Part shown: one piece after another, positions 1 through 20,047 of the stretch
How the letters are laid out: each line of letters begins with the position of its first letter
How positions within the stretch are numbered: the stretch's first letter is position 1
Assembly: GCF_058153355.1 (NCBI RefSeq)
Contig: NZ_CM177019.1
DNA: 64,000 nt
Strand: one strand, 5' to 3'
Position numbers and translations under genes: made by a program
Notes under the pieces: model-generated
The model's database searches: none
The model's input: only the letters and a program-made list of their open reading frames with translations
What the model was told of the DNA's origin: nothing

Positions 1-843
1 GGCAATTGGCGTACGCATATCCGGTTCCCCCAGCTGCGCCAGAACACTGCCGTCCTGATAGCGCACCATTGAGTGAATCACTGACTGCGGGTGAATCAGC
101 ACTTCCATCTGGCTGGCGCTGGCGTTAAACAGCCAACGCGCTTCAATGTATTCCAGACCTTTATTCATCATGGTAGCCGAATCGACAGAAATTTTACGCC
201 CCATCGACCAGTTCGGATGACGGCAGGCTTGATCCGGCGTCATTGTTGCCAAATCGCGCAATGGCGTCTCACGGAAAGGGCCACCAGACCCGGTAAGTAA
301 AATGGACACCACGCCATTTTGCTCAAGGTCAGCGTATCCCAGATTATGCTGGATAGGTTGCGGTAAACTCTGAAAAATGGCGTTATGTTCGCTATCGACC
401 GGTAACAATTGCGCTTTGCTCTGCTTTACGGCGTCCATAAACAGACGTCCGCAAGTGACCAGTGATTCTTTATTGGCCAGCAAAATGGTTTTACCCGCGC
501 GAATCGCAGCAAGCGTAGGTAACAGGCCAGCTGCGCCAACAATGGCTGCCATCACCTGATCAACATCCTCAAGCGCTGCCATATCGCAAGCGGCTTGTTG
601 CCCACTTAAGACTTCGGTGCGGCTACCCTGTTGCTGTAGCATCGTTTTAAGAAGTTTCGCACTCGCTTCATCGTCCATTACAGCATATCGGGGAGAGAAT
701 TCCAGGCACTGTTCTACCATGCGAGTGACATTTTTGCCTGCCACCAGCGCAACTACGCGGAAGTGTTCGGGATTATGGCGCACCACGTCCAGCGTGCTGC
801 AACCAATCGAGCCGGTCGAGCCCAGAATGGTGAGTTGCTTCAT
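1..843 (-). CDS. dxr: 1-deoxy-D-xylulose 5-phosphate reductoisomerase, 5' part only (3' end lies beyond window edge)
   Basis: Minus-strand frame open from window edge to ATG at 841-843; reverse complement reads [39 protein letters not shown]; absent from ORF track because no stop lies inside the window; synteny with frr. Confidence 0.9.
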
Positions 844-934
844 GAAACATCCAGAGTTGAGACAGAATAAAAAGCAAAACGCCGCCAGCCGATCCGCAAG
901 GATCTACTGAGCGGCGTTTTTGTCGTTCAAGAAA

Positions 935-1492
935 TCAGAACTGCATCAGTTCTGCTTCTTTGTCTGCCAGCGCCGCTTCAATTTTCTTGATTGCAGCATC
1001 AGTCAGTTTCTGTACATCGTCCTGAGAACGGCGATCGTCGTCTTCGCTGATCTCTTTATCTTTCAACAGTGCTTTCACTTTGTCGTTCGCGTCACGACGC
1101 ACGTTACGTACTGCAACACGCGCTTGTTCTGCTTCACCACGAACAATTTTGGTCAGATCTTTACGACGTTCTTCCGTCAGCGGCGGCAGCGGAACACGGA
1201 TGTCGCTACCCGCAGAGTTCGGGTTCAGGCCAAGATCGGACGCCATAATCGCTTTTTCAACGGCCGGAGACATTGAACGATCAAACACGTTGATTTTCAG
1301 AGTACGGGAATCTTCTACCGTTACGCTTGCCAGCTGACGCAGCGGCGTCGGCGTGCCGTAATATTCCACGACAATGCCATCCAGCAGGCTGGGAGAAGCA
1401 CGACCCGTGCGTATTTTGCTGATTTGGGTTTTGAACGCTTCTACGCATTTGTCCATGCGTACTTCAGCATCTTTTCTGATATCGCTAATCAC
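935..1492 (-). CDS. frr: ribosome recycling factor
   Basis: 185-aa [33 protein letters not shown]..., full-length match to Frr; synteny. Confidence 0.97.
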
Positions 1493-1783
1493 GTTACGAA
1501 TCCTTGAAAACTTGTCTCAGTCAGACCAGACAGTCACACACAGTGGAAGTGTGCTAAGTATAGCCCTGATTAAACATATTACGGGTAATCGTCTGGATTA
1601 TTAGGCTATTTTATTTGCCATTTTGGCCCCGGGCAGTGCTCGCCATCCTCGCGTACTTGTGTACGCTCCGGTTGCTGCGCGCTGGCCGTGACCAAACTGC
1701 CTGCAACAATAACGCCTTATAACCAGACTTACGCCCCCGCGATACTTACGCGGAATCTTACCCTTATTTATCCATCACGGGAA

Positions 1784-2509
1784 TTATTCCGTGATTAAAG
1801 TCCCTTCTTTTTCACCCATTACCACACGGCGCAGCGCACCCGGTTTGTTCATGTTGAAAACACGAATCGGTAATTTATGGTCACGAGCCAGCGTGAAGGC
1901 CGCCAGGTCCATGACTTTCAGCTCTTTTTCCAGCACTTCGCTGTAAGTCAGTTGCTCGTACATCGTTGCGGTTGGATCTTTCGCCGGATCAGCAGTAAAC
2001 ACGCCGTCAACTTTGGTTGCTTTCAGCACCACATCGGCTTCAATTTCGATACCACGCAGGCAAGCTGCAGAGTCGGTGGTAAAGAACGGGTTACCTGTAC
2101 CGGCGGAGAGGATCACCACACGATTGTTGCGCAACAGGCTAATCGCTTCTGCCCAGCTGTAGCTGTCGCACACGCCATTCAATGGAATAGCGGACATCAG
2201 ACGAGCGTTCACATAGGCGCGGTGCAGTGCATCACGCATTGCCAGGCCGTTCATTACGGTCGCCAGCATCCCCATGTGGTCGCCCACAACGCGGTTCATA
2301 CCCGCTTTCGCCAGACCAGCGCCACGGAACAGGTTACCCCCACCAATCACCACACCAACCTGAATACCCAGTTCAACCAGTTCTTTGATTTCCTGAGCCA
2401 TGCGATCCAGTATGCTTGCATCAATACCGAAGCCTTCCGTGCCCTGCAGAGCTTCGCCACTCAACTTAAGCAGAATGCGTTTATAGACGGGTTTTGCATT
2501 GGTAGCCAT
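1784..2509 (-). CDS. pyrH: UMP kinase
   Basis: 241-aa [24 protein letters not shown]..., amino-acid kinase family; synteny frr-pyrH-tsf. Confidence 0.97.
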
Positions 2510-2617
2510 GTTTCTTTCCTGAGACTGTCAACGATTGAAATGAATTAATACCGGCGACATTGTACGTCGCTTTTCAGCGCAGCCCCATAAGGGTTAGCTG
2601 AATTTACAAGATGGGCG

Positions 2618-2645
2618 CAAAAAGAAGCCGCCCTCAGGCGGCTCC
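2618..2645 (-). terminator. intrinsic terminator downstream of tsf
   Basis: On minus strand GC hairpin (agccgcc/ggcggct arms) followed by U-rich run, immediately after the tsf stop. Confidence 0.6.
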
Positions 2646-2655
2646 TTTTCGATAA

Positions 2656-3507
2656 TTAAGACTGCTTGGACATCGCAGCAACTTCTGCTGCAAAGTCAGT
2701 CTCAACTTTCTCGATGCCTTCACCTACTTCGAAGCGGATGAAGCCAGTCACTTCAGCGTTATGCTCTTTCAGCAGCTGACCAACAGTTTTGCTTGGTTCC
2801 ATAACGAACGGCTGACCGGTCAGAGAAACTTCGCCGGTGAATTTCTTCATGCGGCCTTCAACCATTTTCTCTGCGATTTCTTTCGGCTTACCAGACTGCA
2901 TCGCGATATCCAGCTGAACCTGGTATTCTTTCTCTACCACTTCAGCGGAAACGTCTTCCGGTTTGATGAATTCTGGTTTGCTTGCAGCAACGTGCATAGC
3001 GATGTGTTTAACCAGCTCTTCGTCAGCGCCTTTAGCAGCAACCAGAACGCCGATACGCGCACCGTGCTGATAAGAACCCAGAACGTCGCCTTCCAGCGCA
3101 GCAACGCGGCGAATGTTGATGTTTTCACCGATTTTCGCTACCAGCGCAACACGTTCTTCTTCGAACTGTGCTTTCAGAACTTCAACGTCAGTGATTTTGC
3201 CAGCAACAGCTGCGTCCAGAACTTTGTCTGCGAACGCCTGGAAACCAGCGTCTTTTGCAACGAAGTCAGTCTGGCAGTTAACTTCCAGAATGATGCCGTA
3301 GTTGCCGTCGATTTTGGTTTTGATCACGCCGTCAGCAGCAACGTTGCCTGCTTTTTTCGCTGCTTTGATAGCACCGGACTTACGCATGTTTTCGATTGCC
3401 AGCTCGATGTCGCCGTTAGCTTCAGTCAGTGCTTTTTTGCAATCCATCATGCCTGCGCCAGTACGCTCACGCAGCTCTTTTACCAGGGATGCGGTAATTT
3501 CAGCCAT
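2656..3507 (-). CDS. tsf: elongation factor Ts
   Basis: 283-aa [30 protein letters not shown]..., EF-Ts; synteny with rpsB. Confidence 0.97.
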
Positions 3508-3561
3508 TCTAAAATCCTCGGAGATGTGATCTGCCCGGCGTTAAACCGCACAGATATAAAA

Positions 3562-3590
3562 GTGAAAAAGGGGGCCATATGCAGGCCCCC
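3562..3590 (-). terminator. rpsB-tsf intercistronic attenuator/terminator hairpin
   Basis: Inverted repeat gggggcc-atatgca-ggccccc followed on the minus strand by a T-run; positioned between rpsB stop and tsf start. Confidence 0.55.
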
Positions 3591-3639
3591 TAACCAAACG
3601 TGTACTACCTGGTCTATAAGGGCTCTCCCCCTTCATATT

Positions 3640-3745
3640 TCGCGCCGCAGATGCGTTGTCTTCGCTCGCTCATCCCGGTCACTTACTGATGTAAGCTCCC
3701 GGGAATTCTCGAGCTTGCCGCCTTTCTGCAACTCGAACTAATTTG
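3640..3745 (-). repeat. degenerate ERIC-like intergenic repeat in rpsB-tsf spacer
   Basis: About 85 percent identity over ~70 nt to the reverse complement of the ERIC copy at 45371-45440 (core cacttactgatgtaagctcc vs cacttacttatgtaagctcc). Confidence 0.55.
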
Positions 3746-3764
3746 GGGGAGTTATCAAGCCTTA

Positions 3765-4712
<948 letters not shown>

Positions 4713-4857
4713 TCAGACGATGAATTTTCTATTATAGAAAACGTTCAGTGGCACGTTTGGCGAAATTCAGAATGATTCTCAATTTGCCCGGGTGTGATAC
4801 CATTGACGACACTTACATATATATTGTCGGTATCACCGACGCTGATGGACAGAATTA

Positions 4858-5652
4858 ATGGCTATCTCAATCAAGACCCCAGAAGATATCGAAAAAATGC
4901 GCGTCGCTGGCCGACTGGCTGCCGAAGTGCTGGAAATGATCGAACCGTATGTTAAACCGGGCGTCAGCACCGGCGAGCTGGATCGCATCTGTAATGATTA
5001 CATTGTTAATGAACAACACGCGGTTTCTGCCTGCCTCGGCTATCACGGCTATCCGAAATCCGTTTGCATCTCTATTAATGAAGTGGTGTGCCACGGTATC
5101 CCGGACGACGCCAAGCTGCTGAAAGATGGCGATATCGTTAACATTGATGTCACCGTAATCAAAGATGGTTTCCACGGCGACACCTCGAAAATGTTTATCG
5201 TCGGTAAGCCGACCATCATGGGCGAACGTCTGTGCCGCGTAACGCAAGAGAGTCTTTACCTGGCGCTACGCATGGTAAAACCGGGCATTAATCTGCGCGA
5301 AATCGGCGCGGCGATTCAGAAATTTGTCGAAGCAGAAGGCTTCTCCGTCGTTCGTGAATATTGCGGACACGGTATTGGTCGCGGCTTCCATGAAGAACCG
5401 CAGGTGCTGCATTATGACTCCCGTGAAACCAACGTCGTGCTGAAGCCGGGAATGACCTTCACCATCGAGCCAATGGTCAACGCGGGCAAAAAAGAGATCC
5501 GCACCATGAAAGATGGCTGGACGGTAAAAACCAAAGATCGCAGCTTGTCTGCACAATATGAGCATACTATTGTGGTGACCGATAACGGCTGCGAAATTCT
5601 GACGCTACGCAAGGATGACACCATCCCGGCGATAATCTCGCACGAAGAATAA
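4858..5652 (+). CDS. map: methionine aminopeptidase
   Basis: 264-aa ORF MAISIKTPEDIEKMRVAGRLAAEVLEMIEPYVKPG...; synteny. Confidence 0.97.
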   Translation: MAISIKTPEDIEKMRVAGRLAAEVLEMIEPYVKPGVSTGELDRICNDYIVNEQHAVSACLGYHGYPKSVCISINEVVCHGIPDDAKLLKDGDIVNIDVTVIKDGFHGDTSKMFIVGKPTIMGERLCRVTQESLYLALRMVKPGINLREIGAAIQKFVEAEGFSVVREYCGHGIGRGFHEEPQVLHYDSRETNVVLKPGMTFTIEPMVNAGKKEIRTMKDGWTVKTKDRSLSAQYEHTIVVTDNGCEILTLRKDDTIPAIISHEE

Positions 5653-5656
5653 GATG

Positions 5657-5682
5657 AAGCCGGCGAATGCCGGCTTTTTTAA
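5657..5682 (+). terminator. intrinsic terminator of map
   Basis: aagccggc-gaat-gccggctt hairpin followed by TTTTTT, 5 nt after the map stop. Confidence 0.65.
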
Positions 5683-5695
5683 TACGATAATTTAA

Positions 5696-8386
<2,691 letters not shown>

Positions 8387-8416
8387 TGTGTTTACTGATA
8401 TGAAAAGAGTTTAACA

Positions 8417-9241
8417 ATGCAGCAGTTACAGAACATTATTGAAACCGCTTTTGAACGCCGTGCCGAGATCACGCCAGCCAATGCAGACACCGTTACCCGC
8501 GAAGCGGTAAATCAGGTGATCGCCCTGCTGGATTCCGGCGCACTGCGTGTAGCGGAAAAAATTGACGGTCAGTGGGTGACGCATCAGTGGTTGAAAAAAG
8601 CGGTGCTGCTCTCTTTCCGTATTAATGATAATCAGGTGATCGAAGGGGCAGAAAGCCGCTACTTCGACAAAGTGCCGATGAAATTCGCTAACTACGATGA
8701 AGCACGTTTCCAGAAAGAAGGCTTCCGCGTCGTGCCACCAGCGGCAGTACGTCAAGGTGCGTTTATCGCCCGTAACACCGTGCTGATGCCGTCTTACGTC
8801 AACATCGGCGCATATGTTGATGAAGGCACCATGGTTGATACCTGGGCGACCGTCGGTTCCTGTGCGCAGATTGGTAAAAATGTCCACCTTTCCGGTGGCG
8901 TAGGTATCGGCGGCGTGCTGGAGCCGCTGCAGGCTAATCCGACCATCATTGAAGATAACTGCTTCATCGGCGCGCGCTCTGAAGTGGTTGAAGGCGTAAT
9001 TGTCGAAGAAGGTTCCGTCATCTCTATGGGCGTATACATTGGTCAAAGCACCCGTATTTACGACCGTGAAACCGGCGAAATCCACTACGGTCGCGTTCCG
9101 GCGGGGTCTGTGGTTGTTTCAGGTAATCTGCCGTCGAAAGATGGCAAATACAGCCTCTACTGTGCGGTGATCGTTAAGAAAGTTGACGCGAAAACTCGCG
9201 GCAAAGTCGGCATTAACGAACTGCTACGCACCATCGACTAA
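8417..9241 (+). CDS. dapD: 2,3,4,5-tetrahydropyridine-2,6-dicarboxylate N-succinyltransferase
   Basis: 274-aa [51 protein letters not shown]..., hexapeptide-repeat transferase. Confidence 0.97.
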
Positions 9242-9553
9242 AAGTATGCACACGGGCAGCACGACGCTGCCCGATTGCTTTCTGGTTCAGAATAATTCGT
9301 CCTACTCATTCTTCTTCCCCTTTTTTAAATACTTTTTCATCTTGTTTCGGACTGTCATGTAATTCGCAAAACAAAGATAAATGTGCTAATCCATCCCATG
9401 GAATATCGCCACAATAAAGCAGGTAATTTTTTGATTTTTACGCCATGATAGAAGTCTGGAAGAAAAAGGCTTTCTGCGATCACAGTCGAGCCGGGCGGGC
9501 CAGGCCAAATGCTAAAATAAGCACAATTTACTGACTCATTTTGAGGTAACGCT

Positions 9554-9940
9554 ATGTACGACAATCTGAAAAGTCTGGGTATTACCAATCCTGAAGAAAT
9601 TGATCGTTACAGCCTCCGGCAGGAAGCCAACAACGATATTCTGAAAATCTATTTCCAGAAAGACAAAGGCGAGTTTTTCGCCAAGAGCGTGAAATTTAAA
9701 TATCCACGTCAGCGCAAAACGATAGTCGCTGATGGTGTGGGTCAAGGTTATAAAGAAGTACAGGAAATCAGCCCGAACCTGCGGTATATCATTGATGAAC
9801 TTGATCAAATCTGCCAGCGTGACCGCAGCGAGGTCGATCTTAAGCGTAAGATCCTCGACGATTTACGTCACCTGGAATCAGTCGTCACTAACAAAATCAG
9901 CGAGATTGAAGCCGATCTGGAAAAACTGACACGTAAATAA
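9554..9940 (+). CDS. yaeH: DUF3461 family protein YaeH
   Basis: 128-aa [45 protein letters not shown]...; synteny next to cdaR. Confidence 0.9.
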
Positions 9941-9967
9941 TCCCTGACTGACGGTTAGCTCGGGTAG

Positions 9968-9994
9968 TCTCCTCTCCCCTTCGGGGTGAGGAGA
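9968..9994. terminator. bidirectional hairpin between convergent yaeH and cdaR
   Basis: Inverted repeat tctcctctcccc-ttc-ggggtgaggaga (one mismatch) in the 88-bp convergent spacer. Confidence 0.5.
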
Positions 9995-10028
9995 ACAAGC
10001 CTGCCCCGCCTCGACCTTAACGCATAAC

Positions 10029-11186
10029 CTACCGCTCTTCATCTAGTTGCAGCGCCACATACAGCAGCAACCTGTCATCAAAATTGCCCAAATCAAGCCC
10101 GGTCAGTTCCGATATACGATTAAGCCGATACTCAAGAGTATTACGATGAATAAACAACGCCTTTGACGTTGCCAGCGGTTGCACATTGTGGCGAAACCAC
10201 GCCGCCAGCGTTCGCCGCAGCAAGCCGTTATTGTCCATCGCTTTCAGCCGCGCCAGCGGTCGCGCCAGTTCGTTGGCCTGCCAGTCGCCACGCAAACTGT
10301 CGAGCAACACAGGCAACATCAAATCCTGATAAAAATAGCAGCGACTTTCGGGCATCCGCTGTTTACCCACCACCATCGTCGTTTTCGCCGTACGATAGGA
10401 TCGGGCAATACTGCCAGGACCGGTAAAATAGTTGCCCAGCGAAACGCGAAAACGCAGCTGGCCGTACTCTTTCATGCGGGTAATCAGTTGTTCAACTCGC
10501 TTACGATGATCTTCTGCATCCCAGCGCCCAAAAGAGTTCAACGCCGGTTTCAACACCACCATTTCGGTCAGCGAGACAATCGCCACCAGATTATTACGCT
10601 CGGGCGTAGTCAGCGCGTTTTGCAGTTGCTGTAACTCCGCCATTGCGCTATCCACGCCAAGTTGACCGCTATCGACCTCAACAATAGCCACCACTCGCGG
10701 TTGATTGAGATCGATCCCCAACCGTTGCGCCCATTCAGTGAGTGCGGGAGTATTCTCCTCCGCCTGAATCAGGTTCATCACCAACTCTTCCCGCAAACGG
10801 CTATCCTGCGCCAACAGATGCATCAACCGCGACTGTTCCAGCATCATTTCAGCCGTCATGCAGACCAGTTCGCCATATTTACGCAGATTCTCTGGTTCAC
10901 CAGTCAAGCCGATTACGCCGACAATTTCACCTTCCAGCCGTAATGGTAGATTAATCCCCTGCCGCACACCGTGCAGATGACGTGCCACCGCGTCATCGAT
11001 ATCGACGACTCGTCCCTGTGAAAGTACCAGCAATGCACCTTCGTGCAATTCACCAATACGCTCACGATCGCCGCTGCCGATAATACGCCCGCGGGCATCC
11101 ATTACGTTAATATTGGTATCAATGATGCGCATGGTGCGCGCCACGATATCCTGCGCCATTTTGGTATCAAGATGCCAGCCAGCCAT
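10029..11186 (-). CDS. cdaR: carbohydrate diacid regulator (sugar diacid utilization regulator)
   Basis: ORF track frame 10029..11204; native start taken at MAGWHLDTKMAQDIVARTMRIIDTNINVMD (385 aa), C-terminal HTH; start choice among in-frame Met codons is uncertain. Confidence 0.9.
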   Translation of the reverse strand: MAGWHLDTKMAQDIVARTMRIIDTNINVMDARGRIIGSGDRERIGELHEGALLVLSQGRVVDIDDAVARHLHGVRQGINLPLRLEGEIVGVIGLTGEPENLRKYGELVCMTAEMMLEQSRLMHLLAQDSRLREELVMNLIQAEENTPALTEWAQRLGIDLNQPRVVAIVEVDSGQLGVDSAMAELQQLQNALTTPERNNLVAIVSLTEMVVLKPALNSFGRWDAEDHRKRVEQLITRMKEYGQLRFRVSLGNYFTGPGSIARSYRTAKTTMVVGKQRMPESRCYFYQDLMLPVLLDSLRGDWQANELARPLARLKAMDNNGLLRRTLAAWFRHNVQPLATSKALFIHRNTLEYRLNRISELTGLDLGNFDDRLLLYVALQLDEER

Positions 11187-11304
11187 AAGTCCTCCGTTAT
11201 GCACGGCTTAGCATAAGGAAGTACGTAACGTACGGCATTGTGCAAATGCCCAAAGGATGAGGAAGATGTATGGAGTTGTGGTGAAGTTCACAGATTGTAA
11301 GGAG

Positions 11305-11332
11305 AACCCCTTCCCGTTTTCAGGAAGGGGTT
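11305..11332. repeat. perfect 10-bp-arm palindrome just downstream of degP
   Basis: aaccccttcc-cgttttca-ggaaggggtt; 9 bp after the degP stop and upstream of cdaR; no U-tract on the degP strand. Confidence 0.6.
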
Positions 11333-11340
11333 GAGGAAGA

Positions 11341-12765
11341 TTACTGCATTAACAGATAGATGGTGCTGTCGCCGCGCTGAATATTCAGTGCCAGCACAGA
11401 CGGTTTGCTGTCGAGAACTTTACGCAGTTCAGCGATGTTTTTCACTGCCTGCTGGTTCGCACCAATAATCACATCACCTTTCTTCAGGCCGATCTGCGCA
11501 GCCGGAGTGCCCGTTTTCACGTTGTTCACCACCACGCCCTGATCTTTGCCTTTGTTGCTCATCTCAGCGCCTTCAATGCCGTTGAAGATGGTGCTGGAAT
11601 CAACCTGATTCTGGCTGCTCTGCTGCAGTTCCAGGTTCACGTTAACCTGCTTCCCGTCGCGCAGTAAGCCCAGGGTCAGTTTGCTGCCTACCGGCATAGT
11701 GCCCACCTGAGCACGCAGTGCGGCAAAGCTGCTGATTGGCTTACCGTTCAGTGAGGTGATCACATCACCCGCTTTAATGCCCGCTTTCGCGGCGGAAGAG
11801 TTCGGCAGAACCTGGCTTACGAAAGCACCGCGCTGGGCGTCAACTTTCATCGCTTTCGCCAGATCGGAGTTCAGCTCAGTCCCCATAATACCCAGCTCAC
11901 CGCGTTTCACCTGGCCGTATTCCACCATCTGCGAGGTCAGGTTTTTCACCATGTTGCTCGGGATAGCAAAACCGATACCGATGTTTCCGCCGTCCGGTGC
12001 GAGGATCGCGGTGTTGATACCAATCAGTTCGCCGTTCAGGTTAACCAGCGCGCCACCAGAGTTACCCCGGTTGATCGCTGCATCGGTCTGGATGAAGTTT
12101 TCGTAGTTTTCAGCGTTCAGGCCGCTACGTCCCAGCGCAGAGACAATCCCGGAAGTTACTGTCTCGCCCAGGCCGAACGGGTTACCAATTGCTACGGTGT
12201 AATCACCCACGCGCAGTGCATCAGAATCCGCCATCTTAATTGCGGTCAGGTTTTTCGGATTCTGGATCTGGATCAGCGCGATATCAGAGCGCGGATCTTT
12301 GCCAACCATCTTCGCGTCGAACTTACGACCATCGCTCAGCTGGACTTTAATCACCGTCGCGTTATCAACAACGTGGTTGTTGGTGACGACATAGCCTTTA
12401 TCGGCATCAATGATGACGCCGGAACCCAGCGCCATGAATTTTTGTTGCTGGCCGCCGCCATTACCGCCCTGGCCCCCCTGGCAGAACGGAGAGCTCTGGA
12501 ACGGAGAACCTTCCTGGCAGAACGGAGAATCATCACCGAAGAACTGCTGGAAATTACGCGGCATACGCGGCGTATTAACGGTTGTGCTACCTTCTACGTT
12601 AATGCTGACCACTGAAGGCATCACCTTTTCGAGCATTGGTGCAAGGCTTGGTATCTGCTGGGCTGTCGTTGCTGAAGAAGTCTCAGCCGCCGTTGCAGAG
12701 AGCGGAGATAACGCCAAACCTAAACTCAGAGCCAGTGCACTCAGTGCTAATGTGGTTTTTTTCAT
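11341..12765 (-). CDS. degP: periplasmic serine endoprotease DegP (HtrA)
   Basis: 474-aa ORF MKKTTLALSALALSLGLALSPLSATAAETSS..., signal peptide, trypsin-like domain and two PDZ domains. Confidence 0.97.
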   Translation of the reverse strand: MKKTTLALSALALSLGLALSPLSATAAETSSATTAQQIPSLAPMLEKVMPSVVSINVEGSTTVNTPRMPRNFQQFFGDDSPFCQEGSPFQSSPFCQGGQGGNGGGQQQKFMALGSGVIIDADKGYVVTNNHVVDNATVIKVQLSDGRKFDAKMVGKDPRSDIALIQIQNPKNLTAIKMADSDALRVGDYTVAIGNPFGLGETVTSGIVSALGRSGLNAENYENFIQTDAAINRGNSGGALVNLNGELIGINTAILAPDGGNIGIGFAIPSNMVKNLTSQMVEYGQVKRGELGIMGTELNSDLAKAMKVDAQRGAFVSQVLPNSSAAKAGIKAGDVITSLNGKPISSFAALRAQVGTMPVGSKLTLGLLRDGKQVNVNLELQQSSQNQVDSSTIFNGIEGAEMSNKGKDQGVVVNNVKTGTPAAQIGLKKGDVIIGANQQAVKNIAELRKVLDSKPSVLALNIQRGDSTIYLLMQ

Positions 12766-12810
12766 GTATTTCAGTCTCGATTAACAGATAACGCAAAATT
12801 GCTGTGTTCT

Positions 12811-12838
12811 TCAGATTCGTTTTATAGCGCGAAGTTCC
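12811..12838 (-). promoter_or_regulatory. sigma-E (RpoE) dependent degP promoter
   Basis: On minus strand GGAACTT (-35, complement of 12832-12838), 16-nt spacer, TCTGA (-10, complement of 12811-12815), about 50 nt upstream of the degP ATG. Confidence 0.75.
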
Positions 12839-12854
12839 GAACTAAAGTTTCTGC

Positions 12855-12890
12855 AAAAAGTAAAAATTTATTGTCCGTCTTTACAAAAGC
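12855..12890 (-). promoter_or_regulatory. candidate CpxR binding region upstream of degP
   Basis: GTAAA pentamers (minus strand tgtaaagacggacaataaatttttac) directly upstream of the sigma-E -35; half-site spacing not canonical. Confidence 0.4.
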
Positions 12891-12894
12891 CTGG

Positions 12895-14412
12895 TTATTG
12901 TTCTACGGCCATCAGACGTCGGTATTCATCCCACGCATAGAGGTCGGTCATACCGCTGATATAATCCTGTAGCAGGCGGCAGCGGTAATAATATTCCCAT
13001 AGCGGAAACTCAGGAGAATCTGACGGTAATTTACTGACAGCCTCGACATAGGCCAGCCGATGGCGCGTCGAGAGTTTGTGGAATAAGCGCGATTCAATAG
13101 GGAAACGTTTCACCCGTTCTTTTTCTACCAATTCAGTAAAGTCTGATAACGACAGGCTTAATAAAGGGCGATAAATCTCTAATAATCCGCTAATGACCCG
13201 ATAGCCCTGCAATTCAAGCTGCTCGACATCTGGATGGCTAAACACATGTTTTACAGCGACATTTTTATATAGCTTTAGAAGATCGCTGCATTCGCTGGCA
13301 TCTTCCAATAATGCATGATTAAACGTTCCGGCGAAAATCGCAGGCAGATTATCAATAAATCGTTGTGCCGCGTAGGGTACCAGTTTATTTAGGGTGTTTA
13401 CCCGTAAATACATAAAAAACTGATCTTCCGTACTGCGGCTTAAACTATTTGAGCGTGATTTTTCCCAGGCATTTTCAACCACCAGCGAAAAGAGCGAACC
13501 TTTCTCATGCTGGCCCCACGCTTCGTGCAAATGATGATAAAGCTGCTCAACGCTGAATATTCTTTTCTCTACCGCATCTTCAAGATCTGCCACACAATAG
13601 GAGATGTCGTCGGCAGCTTCCATAATCCACGTTAATGGAAAACGACTGTAAAGCGCCAAATTAAGTTCTTTACGCAACCGGGCAATATAGGCTTCTTCAG
13701 AAAGATAATAACCCGGCTTTTTCATTAAATAGTGATGTGTCTCAGGCGTTTCACCACGCCACCACGCCGGACGAGTATATTTTAAAATACCGCCAACCTG
13801 TGCCCAGGTGAGATTCATCCGCATCAATGTATGCACCAGACGAATGCCTTGTGCATTCCCCTCAAAATGACATAAGTCCTGACGTATTTTGCGCCGCAGC
13901 TCGTTAAGCGGTTCTTCCCCTTCCCGTAAACGTAATGCCGCCACGCTGCAGCGATCGTCAGTCAGAGGCTGGCTTTCGGCATCAGCCGGAAACAAACGCT
14001 GGCGAAACCAGTCATTTATCGCCGCTTCACCAAAATGACCAAACGGCGGATTGCCGATATCGTGCATCAGGCATGACATCTCAACAATACTTTCAAAGGG
14101 GCCGGTCAGTTCATCCAGACCATAATCTTCCAGTAATTTAAGCTCTTTCAGACGGCTTAAAATTTCTTTGGCGATGTAGCGCCCCACCTGCTGGACTTCC
14201 ATTGAATGGGTTAGACGCGTGCGCACGGCGGCATTTCGCTCCAGCGGAAAAACCTGGGTCTTTTGTTGCAGACGACGAATTGCCGGAGAGTTGATAATAC
14301 GCCCACGATCGCTCTCAAAGATTCGCAGGATCTCATGTTCGGTTTTAACGCCCTGTGGTGAACGGTAACGACGATGCCAGTTTATTTTTTTTCGGAAATC
14401 AATCTGTGCCAT
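12895..14412 (-). CDS. dgt: deoxyguanosine triphosphate triphosphohydrolase
   Basis: 505-aa [58 protein letters not shown]..., HD-domain dGTPase. Confidence 0.96.
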
Positions 14413-14495
14413 GTCCTCTCCCGCGTGAGAAATACGCTTCCCCGTAAGCGCATGGTAAACTATGCCTTCAAATCGGGCTTATCGCGAGTAAATCT

Positions 14496-15194
14496 ATGAA
14501 AATCGGCATCATTGGTGCAATGGAAGAAGAAGTTACGCTGCTGCGTGACAAAATCGAAAACCGCCAAACTATCAGTCTGGGCGGTTGCGAAATCTATACC
14601 GGCCAACTGAATGGAACCGAAGTTGCGCTTCTGAAATCGGGCATCGGTAAAGTTGCTGCGGCACTGGGTGCAACTCTGCTGTTGGAACACTGCAAGCCAG
14701 ATGTGATTATTAACACCGGTTCTGCCGGTGGCCTGGCGCCAACGCTGAAAGTGGGCGATATCGTTGTCTCGGACGAAGCACGTTATCACGACGCGGATGT
14801 CACGGCATTTGGTTACGAATACGGTCAGTTACCTGGCTGCCCGGCTGGCTTCAAAGCTGACGATAAACTGATCGCTGCCGCTGAGGCCTGCATTGCCGAA
14901 CTGAATCTTAACGCTGTACGTGGCCTGATTGTCAGCGGCGACGCTTTCATCAACGGTTCTGTTGGCCTGGCGAAAATCCGCCACAACTTCCCGCAGGCCA
15001 TTGCTGTAGAGATGGAAGCGACGGCAATCGCTCATGTCTGCCACAATTTCAACGTCCCGTTTGTTGTCGTACGCGCCATCTCCGACGTGGCCGATCAACA
15101 GTCTCATCTTAGCTTCGATGAGTTCCTGGCTGTTGCTGCTAAACAGTCCAGCCTGATGGTTGAGTCACTGGTGCAGAAACTGGCACATGGCTAA
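14496..15194 (+). CDS. mtnN: 5'-methylthioadenosine/S-adenosylhomocysteine nucleosidase
   Basis: 232-aa [43 protein letters not shown]... Confidence 0.97.
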
Positions 15195-15987
15195 GTCACT
15201 GTTCAGGGCGCTGGTCGCCCTGTCTTTTCTCGCCCCTCTGTGGCTCAACGCCGCACCGCGCGTCATCACGCTTTCACCCGCCAACACTGAACTTGCTTTT
15301 GCCGCCGGGATCACGCCGGTTGGGGTCAGCAGTTATTCCGACTACCCTCCACAAGCGCAAAAGATTGAGCAGGTTTCAACCTGGCAGGGGATGAATCTCG
15401 AACGCATTGTGGCCCTTAAACCCGATCTGGTGATTGCCTGGCGTGGAGGTAATGCCGAGCGGCAGGTTGACCAGTTAGCTTCGCTGGGAATAAAAGTGAT
15501 GTGGGTCGATGCGACAAGCATTGAACAAATTGCCAATGCGTTACGTCAACTGGCCCCCTGGAGCCCACAACCGGACAAGGCTGAACAAGCCGCGCAATCC
15601 CTGCTGGACCAGTACGCACAATTGAAAGCGCAATATGCTGATAAACCTAAAAAACGTGTTTTTCTGCAATTCGGCATTAATCCGCCATTTACCAGTGGAA
15701 AAGAATCGATTCAAAACCAGGTACTCGAAGTTTGTGGCGGAGAAAACATCTTTAAAGATAGCCGGGTTCCCTGGCCGCAAGTTAGCCGCGAACAGGTGTT
15801 AGCACGCGCGCCACAGGCAATTGTCATTACCGGCGGACCGGACCAAATTCCTAAAATCAAACAATACTGGGGCGAACAGCTCAAAATTCCCGTTATTCCT
15901 CTCACGAGTGACTGGTTTGAACGTGCAAGCCCACGTATTATCCTCGCTGCACAACAGCTCTGTAATGCGCTTTCACAGGTAGATTAG
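15187..15987 (+). CDS. btuF: vitamin B12 ABC transporter periplasmic binding protein
   Basis: ORF track frame begins at TTG 15160; native ATG at 15187 gives 266 aa [35 protein letters not shown]... with signal peptide; overlaps mtnN 3' end by 8 nt. Confidence 0.93.
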
Positions 15988-16024
15988 CGCCTGACCTTTT
16001 CAGGTGCTCAGTGGGGATTGAACA

Positions 16025-16648
16025 ATGCTCGTCTATTGGCTGGATATAGTCGGCACAGCGGTATTTGCCATCTCCGGCGTTTTGTTAGCCGGAAAATTGC
16101 GTATGGACCCTTTTGGTGTTCTGGTACTGGGCGTGGTTACCGCAGTAGGCGGCGGAACAATTCGCGACATGGCGCTGGATCACGGCCCGGTATTTTGGGT
16201 GAAAGATCCCACCGATCTGGTCGTTGCAATGGTAACCAGCATGCTGACGATCGTGCTGGTGCGCCAGCCAAGACGCTTACCGAAATGGATGTTGCCGGTG
16301 CTGGATGCCGTTGGTCTGGCGGTGTTTGTCGGCATTGGCGTGAATAAAGCCTTTAATGCGGAAGCCGGTCCGTTGATCGCGGTTTGTATGGGCGTCATTA
16401 CTGGCGTTGGCGGCGGGATCATTCGTGATGTACTGGCCCGCGAAATCCCCATGATTTTACGCACAGAAATCTACGCAACGGCCTGTATTATCGGCGGTAT
16501 TGTCCACGCTACGGCTTATTACACATTTTCCGTGCCCCTGGAAACAGCCAGTATGATGGGCATGGTCGTGACGCTATTGATTCGACTGGCGGCTATTCGT
16601 TGGCATCTTAAGCTACCGACGTTTGCGCTGGATGAGAATGGGCGTTGA
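16025..16648 (+). CDS. yadS: UPF0126 family inner membrane protein
   Basis: 207-aa hydrophobic ORF MLVYWLDIVGTAVFAISGVLLAGKLRMDPFGVLVLGVVTAVGGGTIRD..., duplicated glycine-rich TM motif. Confidence 0.9.
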   Translation: MLVYWLDIVGTAVFAISGVLLAGKLRMDPFGVLVLGVVTAVGGGTIRDMALDHGPVFWVKDPTDLVVAMVTSMLTIVLVRQPRRLPKWMLPVLDAVGLAVFVGIGVNKAFNAEAGPLIAVCMGVITGVGGGIIRDVLAREIPMILRTEIYATACIIGGIVHATAYYTFSVPLETASMMGMVVTLLIRLAAIRWHLKLPTFALDENGR

Positions 16649-16659
16649 AGAGAGGAGAT

Positions 16660-16682
16660 GTGCCGGATAGCTTATCCGGCAC
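16660..16682. terminator. bidirectional hairpin between convergent yadS and erpA
   Basis: gtgccggata-gct-tatccggcac palindrome in the 46-bp convergent spacer. Confidence 0.5.
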
Positions 16683-16694
16683 ACGAATAAGAGA

Positions 16695-17039
16695 TTAGAT
16701 GCTGAAGGAAGAACCGCAACCGCAGGTGCTTTTCGCGTTCGGGTTGGTCACGATGAAACGAGAACCTTCCAGACCTTCGGTATAGTCAACGGAACCGCCG
16801 ACCAGATATTGCAGGCTCATCGGGTCAACCACTAGGCCTACGCCCTGTTTTTCGATGGTCATATCGCCTTCGTTCACCTGATCATCAAAGGTGAAACCAT
16901 ACTGGAAGCCGCTACAACCGCCACCGGTGATATACACGCGTAATTTCAGATTCGGGTTATCTTCGTCAGCGATCAGGCTTTTAACTTTGTTGGCTGCTGC
17001 GTCGGTAAACTCCAGCGGCAGTGCTACGTCATCACTCAT
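16695..17039 (-). CDS. erpA: iron-sulfur cluster insertion protein ErpA
   Basis: ORF track frame 16695..17072 trimmed to 114 aa [49 protein letters not shown]...[10 protein letters not shown]-type carrier. Confidence 0.95.
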
Positions 17040-17120
17040 ATTTTGCTCCAAACGACATCGGCAATTGGGCAAATTCTAACCCAATAATAATCGCCATTAT
17101 CTAATACCCTGGTATTTCGT

Positions 17121-18560
<1,440 letters not shown>

Positions 18561-18766
18561 TCATACAAATAAGATGACGGCATTTTACTCGCACGTTCCA
18601 TGAAAATCCTTTGCAAAGCGTAATGTTTCAAATGCACAAAACTTTTATACTCTAAGAAATCAGGATTGTACCAGTACAAGCAACCTGACGTTTGACGAGT
18701 ATTTAACTTGTTATGAATAACATAGAATAGCAGCCATTCACTTTTTCTACGAATCAGGAACCCTCC

Positions 18767-20047
18767 ATGAGTAAGTCTGAAAATCTATACAGCGCAGCGC
18801 GCGAGCTGATCCCTGGCGGTGTGAACTCCCCTGTTCGCGCCTTTACTGGCGTGGGCGGCACTCCACTGTTTATCGAAAAAGCGGACGGTGCTTATCTGTA
18901 CGATGTTGATGGCAAAGCCTATATCGATTATGTCGGTTCCTGGGGGCCGATGGTGCTGGGCCATAACCATCCGGCGATCCGCAATGCCGTGATTGAAGCC
19001 GCCGAGCGTGGTTTAAGCTTTGGGGCACCGACCGAAATGGAAGTGAAAATGGCGCAACTGGTGACCGAACTGGTCCCGACCATGGATATGGTGCGCATGG
19101 TGAACTCCGGCACTGAAGCGACAATGAGTGCCATCCGCCTGGCCCGCGGTTTTACCGGTCGCGACAAAATCATTAAATTTGAAGGTTGTTACCACGGTCA
19201 CGCTGACTGCCTGCTGGTAAAAGCCGGTTCTGGCGCACTCACGTTAGGCCAGCCAAACTCGCCGGGCGTTCCGGCAGATTTTGCCAAACATACCTTAACC
19301 TGTACTTATAACGATCTGGCTTCTGTACGCGCCGCGTTTGAGCAATACCCGCAAGAGATTGCCTGTATTATCGTCGAGCCGGTGGCAGGCAATATGAACT
19401 GTGTTCCGCCGCTGCCAGAGTTCCTGCCGGGTCTGCGTGCGCTGTGTGACGAATTTGGCGCGTTGCTGATCATCGATGAAGTGATGACCGGTTTCCGCGT
19501 GGCGCTGGCTGGCGCGCAGGATTATTACGACGTGGTGCCAGACCTCACCTGCCTGGGCAAAATCATCGGCGGTGGAATGCCGGTAGGCGCATTCGGTGGT
19601 CGTCGTGATGTGATGGATGCGCTGGCCCCAACCGGTCCGGTCTACCAGGCGGGTACGCTTTCCGGTAACCCGATTGCGATGGCAGCCGGTTTCGCCTGTC
19701 TGAATGAAGTCGCGCAGCCGGGCGTTCACGAGACGCTGGATGAGCTGACAACACGTCTGGCAGAAGGTCTGCTGGAAGCGGCAGAAGAAGCGGGAATTCC
19801 ATTGGTCGTTAACCACGTTGGCGGCATGTTCGGTATTTTCTTTACCGACGCCGAGTCCGTGACGTGCTATCAGGATGTGATGGCCTGCGACGTCGAGCGC
19901 TTTAAGCGTTTCTTCCATATGATGCTGGACGAAGGTGTTTACCTGGCACCGTCAGCGTTTGAAGCGGGCTTTATGTCTGTGGCGCACAGCATGGAAGATA
20001 TCAATAACACCATCGATGCTGCACGTCGGGTGTTTGCGAAGTTGTAA
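18767..20047 (+). CDS. hemL: glutamate-1-semialdehyde 2,1-aminomutase
   Basis: 426-aa [52 protein letters not shown]..., class III aminotransferase. Confidence 0.97.

Follow-up and report, generated by a model that had tools for sequence, protein, structure and literature searches.

The dapD–yaeH spacer of the window (the whole 64-kb stretch of DNA that was analyzed) lacks yaeI, and this absence is the ordinary majority state of E. coli, part of an accessory-gene variation that is already known. We propose that, very probably, dapD–yaeH is the site of an old polymorphism with three states in Escherichia, of which the window has the common yaeI-negative haplotype, and that the spacer of the window is the deletion scar of an island composed of yaeI and a second gene, orf236. 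K-12 does not represent the reference state here: in E. coli, yaeI is an accessory gene carried by about 38% of complete genomes, and its absence is the norm, with no event to flag, and matters little in itself. As a modest addition, we reconstruct a fuller ancestral island that held yaeI and orf236, with a probable independent decay to the two common E. coli alleles; this is a reminder that the "intergenic" spacers of core regions can be gene graveyards.

The spacer spans positions 9242 to 9553, exactly 312 bp (Table 1). Its GC content is 41.7% and falls to 35.4% in the central 127 bp, versus 51.9% for the whole window. Neither the ORF list nor the sequence itself revealed a YaeI-like or phosphoesterase ORF in any frame of the spacer, and tblastn searches of the whole 64-kb window with the YaeI proteins of K-12 and E. 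coli GF43 gave a best E value of 0.39, with no yaeI elsewhere in the window. The original prediction, that yaeI is absent between dapD and yaeH and that only 312 bp without a phosphoesterase ORF separates the two genes, is thus borne out. Its account of the K-12 map was also correct, as yaeI occupies 813 bp between dapD and yaeH in K-12 (locus L001), and so was its description of a gene-content difference from K-12 in an otherwise colinear region, since the flanks are colinear. The yaeI-less spacer is genuine sequence and not an assembly artifact, because two independent public contigs (L094 and L100, from runs SRR8656992 and SRR31441161) are 100% identical to the window over positions 7054 to 12440 and because 3338 complete genomes are arranged alike. 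Over that same interval, typical E. coli loci are ∼96% identical to the window, and the best match to window positions 1 to 20000 among 5426 complete E. coli genomes is only 98.4 to 98.6% identical over 20 kb; judging from these identities, the source of the window seems to be a divergent lineage of Escherichia that is poorly sampled.

Table 1. Features of the dapD–yaeH junction, with positions in the window unless another locus is named
Feature	Position	Strand	Details
dapD CDS, left core flank	8417..9241	+	274-aa ORF; 99.6% identical to annotated K-12 DapD
dapD intrinsic-terminator hairpin	9253..9273	+	CGGGCAGC-ACGAC-GCTGCCCG; from terminator scan
Orphan segment (filler), ∼82 bp	9287..9368	.	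AT-rich and pyrimidine-rich; C/T homopolymer tract of variable length at 9310-9326; sequence from the segment, CATCTTGTTTCGGACTGTCATGTAATTCGC
orf236 remnant, last 21 codons and stop	9369..9434	+	KQR*MC*SIPWNIATIKQVIF*; two in-frame stops
orf236–yaeH intergenic region of the island, which is the yaeH upstream region	9435..9553	+	Assigned from homology and near-invariance
Candidate extended -10	9510-9518		TGCTAAAAT; picked by eye, putative
Candidate Shine-Dalgarno	9543-9546		GAGG; picked by eye, putative
yaeH CDS, right core flank	9554..9940	+	128-aa ORF; DUF3461, Pfam PF11944, E = 2e-55
orf236 at other loci	L083 3015-3725; L015 3172-3882; L085 3001-3708; L088 3001-3735; L089 3001-3738		

We compared the window with K-12, in which the gene order is dapD–yaeI–yaeH (b0166–b0164–b0163). 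The genes on either side, the terminator hairpin of dapD, and the 150 bp before yaeH are common to both, at 98 to 99% identity. Homology to K-12 stops at position 9276, just past the hairpin, and starts again at position 9404, from which the right flank (9404 to 9553, 150 bp) is 98.7% identical to K-12 and 99% identical over a longer alignment. The 127 bp in between (9277 to 9403) do not exist in K-12, where that place is occupied by 842 bp containing the 813-bp yaeI, which encodes a protein with a Metallophos domain (PF00149) and a Tat signal. The expectation that a BLASTN comparison with K-12 would define deletion endpoints inside K-12-like sequence fails for this reason: the spacer is not a subset of the K-12 sequence and holds, besides the 127 bp, orf236 sequence that K-12 is missing. 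The difference between the two is a replacement polymorphism and not the clean loss of K-12 sequence. An origin of the 127-bp segment from decayed yaeI was considered and rejected, local alignment on both strands against the 842 bp of K-12 giving a score of 24 (shuffled sequences, mean of 17.8 and maximum of 28).

Evaluation of the 5426 complete E. coli genomes revealed the yaeI segment in 2084 (38.4%) and the 127-bp allele of the window in 3338 (61.5%). Together, the two alleles account for 5422 genomes, almost always at one place per genome. The yaeI-less genomes were counted with window positions 9262 to 9418 (157 bp) as the query, and 3337 of the 3338 cover at least 80% of this query at 90% identity or more. 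Strains of O157:H7 and O25b:H4-ST131 are yaeI-less, and K-12 derivatives, NCTC86, and one O145:H28 strain carry yaeI. An alignment of 11 distinct yaeI-less spacers showed identical left and right junctions, and the window belongs to this common yaeI-negative haplotype, with the same junctions and the same ∼127-bp segment. Compared with the O157:H7 strains, O25b:H4-ST131, and EC42405, it has the junctions, the filler, and the spacer length (309 to 314 bp) in common and differs merely by point differences and by the length of the C/T tract; the EC42405 spacer is 99.4% identical to that of the window, and the 157-bp query is 100% identical in CFSAN061763 and Nord1. In the annotations of EC42405 and BS-04, dapD is followed by yaeH with no gene between them, and the matching genomes list "none" under the segment. 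The accessory status of yaeI is already in the literature, since Leimbach et al. (2017, PMC5422975) list yaeI with the orthologous groups that are significantly enriched in phylogroup A. Presence/absence polymorphisms of accessory genes in the E. coli pangenome are the same phenomenon, a nonmobile single-gene difference inside a core region; the paper gives the enrichment only, without the junction anatomy or the orf236 remnant.

We then looked into the dapD–yaeH locus across the family, using one genome per species and YaeH as the query, and considered the best 80 of 470 loci, a set that does not include E. fergusonii, E. marmotae, E. ruysiae, or Salmonella. Among these 80 loci, more than 60 species of other genera, including Citrobacter, Klebsiella, Enterobacter, Kluyvera, Raoultella, and Cedecea, have dapD and yaeH 106 to 123 bp apart, with no yaeI. 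This ∼110-bp spacer consists of a terminator and the yaeH upstream sequence and is unrelated to the Escherichia spacer. The original prediction implied an unusual loss from a reference state, and this does not hold, the yaeI-less form being the majority in E. coli and widespread in other genera. It had also considered that the yaeI-less arrangement might be both common and ancestral: the arrangement is indeed common, but it is ancestral only at the level of the family and within Escherichia would be derived by deletion.

The full island, dapD–yaeI–orf236–yaeH, was found in E. coli GF43, Escherichia sp. MOD1-EC7003 (a 1.7-kb spacer with yaeI followed by a 236-aa ORF), some E. albertii strains, and Pseudocitrobacter cyperus. 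Partial forms also exist: Enterobacter sp. kpr-6 has orf236 without yaeI; E. albertii NBRC 107761, E. whittamii, and the GTDB E. coli representative have yaeI only; and Escherichia sp. E1V33 has the yaeI-less form of the window, with 91.6% identity overall. A Superficieibacter species (L079, 3223-3760) carries, at the same dapD–yaeH site, a yaeI pseudogene that covers residues 1 to 125, followed by an internal deletion and a frameshift, with the C-terminal ∼40 residues in another frame. The orf236 product has ∼235 to 245 aa, contains no Pfam domain, and is rare, with 21 relatives among 5.8 billion proteins. Wherever enough flanking sequence was retrieved (relatives from five genomes), orf236 lies between dapD and yaeH, usually immediately downstream of yaeI, and its product may be a functional partner of YaeI. 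Neither direct nor inverted repeats flank the island in GF43, K-12, or the window, and the island genes are yaeI and orf236 only, with no transposase or integrase gene among them; signatures of a mobile element (IS, transposon, or integron cassette) are thus missing.

The window shares with the full island its site, the left terminator, the 3′ end of orf236, and the downstream intergenic region, and differs from it by the lack of yaeI and of codons 1 to ∼215 of orf236, a total of about 1.5 kb, in place of which it has the ∼82 bp of orphan sequence. Island sequence is therefore present on both sides of the orphan segment. On the left, positions 9242 to 9286 match the island edge (nhmmer island profile, E = 2.7e-7), with a match that is weak out to 9286, and on the right, 170 bp match the same profile (E = 9e-58). 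The orf236 remnant matches positions 215 to 235 of 236 in a profile of the 21-member orf236 family (hmmsearch, E = 7.7e-5), and 12 of 16 residues are identical to the C terminus of the GF43 orf236 protein (tblastn). At the DNA level, homology to loci L015, L083, and L085 begins at 9384 to 9388. Downstream of the remnant, positions 9435 to 9553 are homologous to the orf236–yaeH spacers of Enterobacter sp. kpr-6 (72%) and P. cyperus (64%) and are nearly invariant across 16 haplotypes. K-12-type alleles also retain a remnant, but they keep the last 10 codons of orf236, ∼11 fewer than the ∼21 of the window; the orf236 match starts at query position 695 in K-12-type alleles versus 675 to 679 in yaeI-less alleles, i.e., 20 bp later in the K-12 type.

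Since the window retains more of orf236 than K-12 does, its allele cannot be derived from the K-12 allele, and the different remnants argue that both E. coli alleles are independent deletion derivatives of the island. We infer the following order of events. The island of yaeI and orf236 would first have displaced the ∼110-bp spacer before the sampled Escherichia lineages diverged, because all examined Escherichia alleles have island-derived flanks and none has the short spacer. A deletion of orf236 except its last 10 codons would then have produced the K-12 type, dapD–yaeI–yaeH, and a separate event would have removed yaeI and most of orf236, sparing the final ∼21 codons of the latter and leaving ∼82 bp of unrelated AT-rich filler, which produced the type seen in the window. 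The yaeI-less allele occurs in ∼61% of complete E. coli genomes and in at least one other Escherichia species, and the 16 distinct yaeI-less haplotypes that we compared over a 1.2-kb region, Escherichia sp. E1V33 among them, have the same junctions and the same filler. Sharing of junctions and filler by every yaeI-less allele examined points to a single origin, after which the allele would have spread, with homologous recombination between the highly conserved flanks in dapD and yaeH as the presumed route; the single origin and the recombinational spread are read from the shared junctions and the patchy distribution over named strains. The consequence would be limited to the loss of an apparently dispensable periplasmic phosphodiesterase, with the yaeH upstream region intact.

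The yaeI-less state could instead be ancestral in Escherichia, with yaeI (with or without orf236) inserted later and the 127-bp segment displaced by it. The absence of yaeI at this position in most other Enterobacteriaceae among the best 80 of 470 loci agrees with such a scenario, and so does the distribution of YaeI itself: beyond Escherichia and a few enterobacterial genera (Superficieibacter, 65%), the closest named relatives are only ∼45 to 58% identical, as would be consistent with horizontal acquisition, and the few distant relatives with a taxon name come from Verrucomicrobiota and other environmental metagenome-assembled genomes. The occupation of the same site by other cargo in other genera also fits a later insertion at a hotspot. 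However, the spacer of the window differs from the family-typical spacer and already holds island sequence, namely a decayed orf236 3′ end and the region between orf236 and yaeH. Because a gene remnant cannot predate the arrival of the gene, the allele of the window must be younger than the island, and we consider the later insertion of yaeI improbable.

The other cargo of the dapD–yaeH gap (L049, 1414-4000; L041, 51-2832; L058, 3355-4000) is a 761-aa ORF on the minus strand in both Enterobacter wuhouensis and Enterobacteriaceae bacterium RIT714, and in Enterobacter sp. BIGb0383 it is a 57-aa ORF whose N terminus resembles that of a lipoprotein. Since different cargo is found there in other genera, the site looks like a recurrent insertion hotspot.

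We next consider yaeI where it is present. One IS1 insertion and truncated copies of yaeI were found in E. coli, and the dN/dS of yaeI is 0.10 to 0.16 versus about 0.00 to 0.02 for dapD and yaeH; on these grounds, yaeI looks dispensable in the strains that carry it. The gene is also more divergent than its neighbors. Between K-12 and E. coli GF43, dS is 0.74 for yaeI, 0.15 for dapD, and 0.18 for yaeH, and within E. coli the dS of yaeI is 2 to 5 times that of the flanking genes (L001 1896-2708 compared with L083, L004, L007, L005, and L015). In 336 E. coli genomes, yaeI is only 80 to 95% identical to K-12 yaeI, and such divergent alleles may belong to deep lineages of yaeI or have come in from other Escherichia species. 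A more elaborate proposal would have yaeI and orf236 form a functional two-gene module, maintained as a long-lived trans-species presence/absence polymorphism by balancing selection, with the orphan segment and a weakened dapD terminator also altering the expression of yaeH. If this were true, the two common alleles would differ in regulation in addition to gene content, but we regard it as quite improbable.

The terminator invoked in this proposal lies at the left edge of the spacer. Its hairpin is common to all Escherichia alleles, and the T tract that follows it (window 9253 to 9283) is interrupted in the yaeI-less allele (ATTGCTTTCT) versus uninterrupted in the yaeI-positive alleles (ATTTTTTTG). 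The interruption could weaken termination and so allow read-through toward yaeH.

Returning to the deletion scar that we favor, the segment of the spacer that has no counterpart in the island is the filler. No similarity was found between this segment and yaeI, orf236, or the island of any species at the level of DNA, DNA profiles, or protein profiles. A decayed piece of orf236 or of the island was rejected, as a permissive blastn search, the nhmmer island profile, and a six-frame protein-profile search matched only positions 9369 to 9434, which is the remnant itself. When the filler was aligned semi-globally with the 130 bp that precede the remnant in each of five variants, z scores ranged from -0.3 to -1.0, and an apparent match to the E. 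albertii variant, noticed by eye, was not supported. Within E. coli, the segment occurs once per genome and at the dapD–yaeH locus only. A plasmid source was discarded because the matches in the plasmid collection were E. coli records of 0.4 to 4.9 Mb with the same locus, and a phage source was discarded because the matches there were 27-nt low-complexity sequences with an E value of about 0.009. As none of these comparisons supplied a source for the filler, the event that removed yaeI would not have been a clean deletion, and the segment could be filler DNA, the remnant of a third cargo, or the product of extreme decay.

The possibility that positions 9277 to 9403 form a functional element kept by selection, such as a small RNA, a small protein, or a site that alters dapD read-through or yaeH expression, draws on several observations. 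The segment is kept in thousands of genomes, both allele classes are old and present in more than one species, and the T tract of the dapD terminator is interrupted specifically in the yaeI-less allele. In addition, a core of ∼25 nt within the filler (9332 to 9356) varies less than its surroundings across the 16 haplotypes. The variation of the segment as a whole speaks against such an element, since no stretch of the locus varies more than the one in which it sits: among the 16 haplotypes, the pairwise difference is 0.08 to 0.14 in most 30-nt bins, versus 0.01 to 0.07 in all but one bin of dapD, and indels are not multiples of three. The allele of BS-04 has a 28-bp deletion and a 13-bp insertion of its own. 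The only small coding candidate, a minus-strand mini-ORF of 18 codons (MTVRNKMKKYLKKGKKNE), is broken by nontriplet changes in the length of the C/T tract. Searches for RNA structure gave no signal (fold z scores of +1.25 and -0.41), and the sole Rfam match, to sroE, falls on the terminator hairpin but on the wrong strand and scores 21 bits, below the gathering score of 51. A two-hexamer scan found no promoter-like site in the segment. Given this fast evolution, the frame-breaking length variation, and the lack of a sign of RNA structure, the orphan segment is most likely a nonfunctional scar or filler. Maintenance of the whole segment by selection is very improbable in our opinion, while a small functional element restricted to positions 9332 to 9356 is possible.

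The reading implied by the original prediction, in which a K-12-like dapD–yaeI–yaeH locus lost yaeI by a simple deletion that was recent and lineage specific, would explain the missing gene and the colinear flanks, 98 to 99% identical to K-12 up to the junctions, but it is almost certainly wrong, being contradicted by the 127 bp that K-12 is missing, by the ∼11 additional codons of orf236, and by the allele itself, which is found in 61.5% of complete genomes and also in another Escherichia species and has diverged into at least 16 haplotypes.

We also made observations on yaeH and its surroundings. In K-12, the RpoD holoenzyme was reported to bind in the spacer between yaeI and yaeH (PMC3946193), and the two-hexamer scan found no promoter in the yaeH upstream region of the window. 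Variation is strongly reduced around the start of yaeH: in a block of ∼270 bp (window 9417 to 9686, the yaeH upstream region and codons 1 to 44), pairwise difference is 0 to 0.012 in the 16 haplotypes, which differ by 4 to 8% elsewhere. Across 16 distinct Escherichia yaeH sequences, including those of E. albertii and E. whittamii, variation at third positions is 0 to 0.04 in codons 1 to 36 versus 0.11 to 0.24 downstream, and 70 yaeH sequences from other genera showed a weaker gradient of the same kind. This pattern suggests either a constraint at the nucleotide level, from an RNA or a regulatory element, or homogenization by recombination. Finally, the yaeH–cdaR spacer of the window (9941 to 10028) is 88 bp long, as in K-12, while EC42405 and several further E. 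coli loci have 53 bp, a 35-bp indel polymorphism; the spacer of the window holds a GC-rich hairpin-like sequence, CTCCTCTCCCCTTCGGGGTGAGGAG, noticed by eye.
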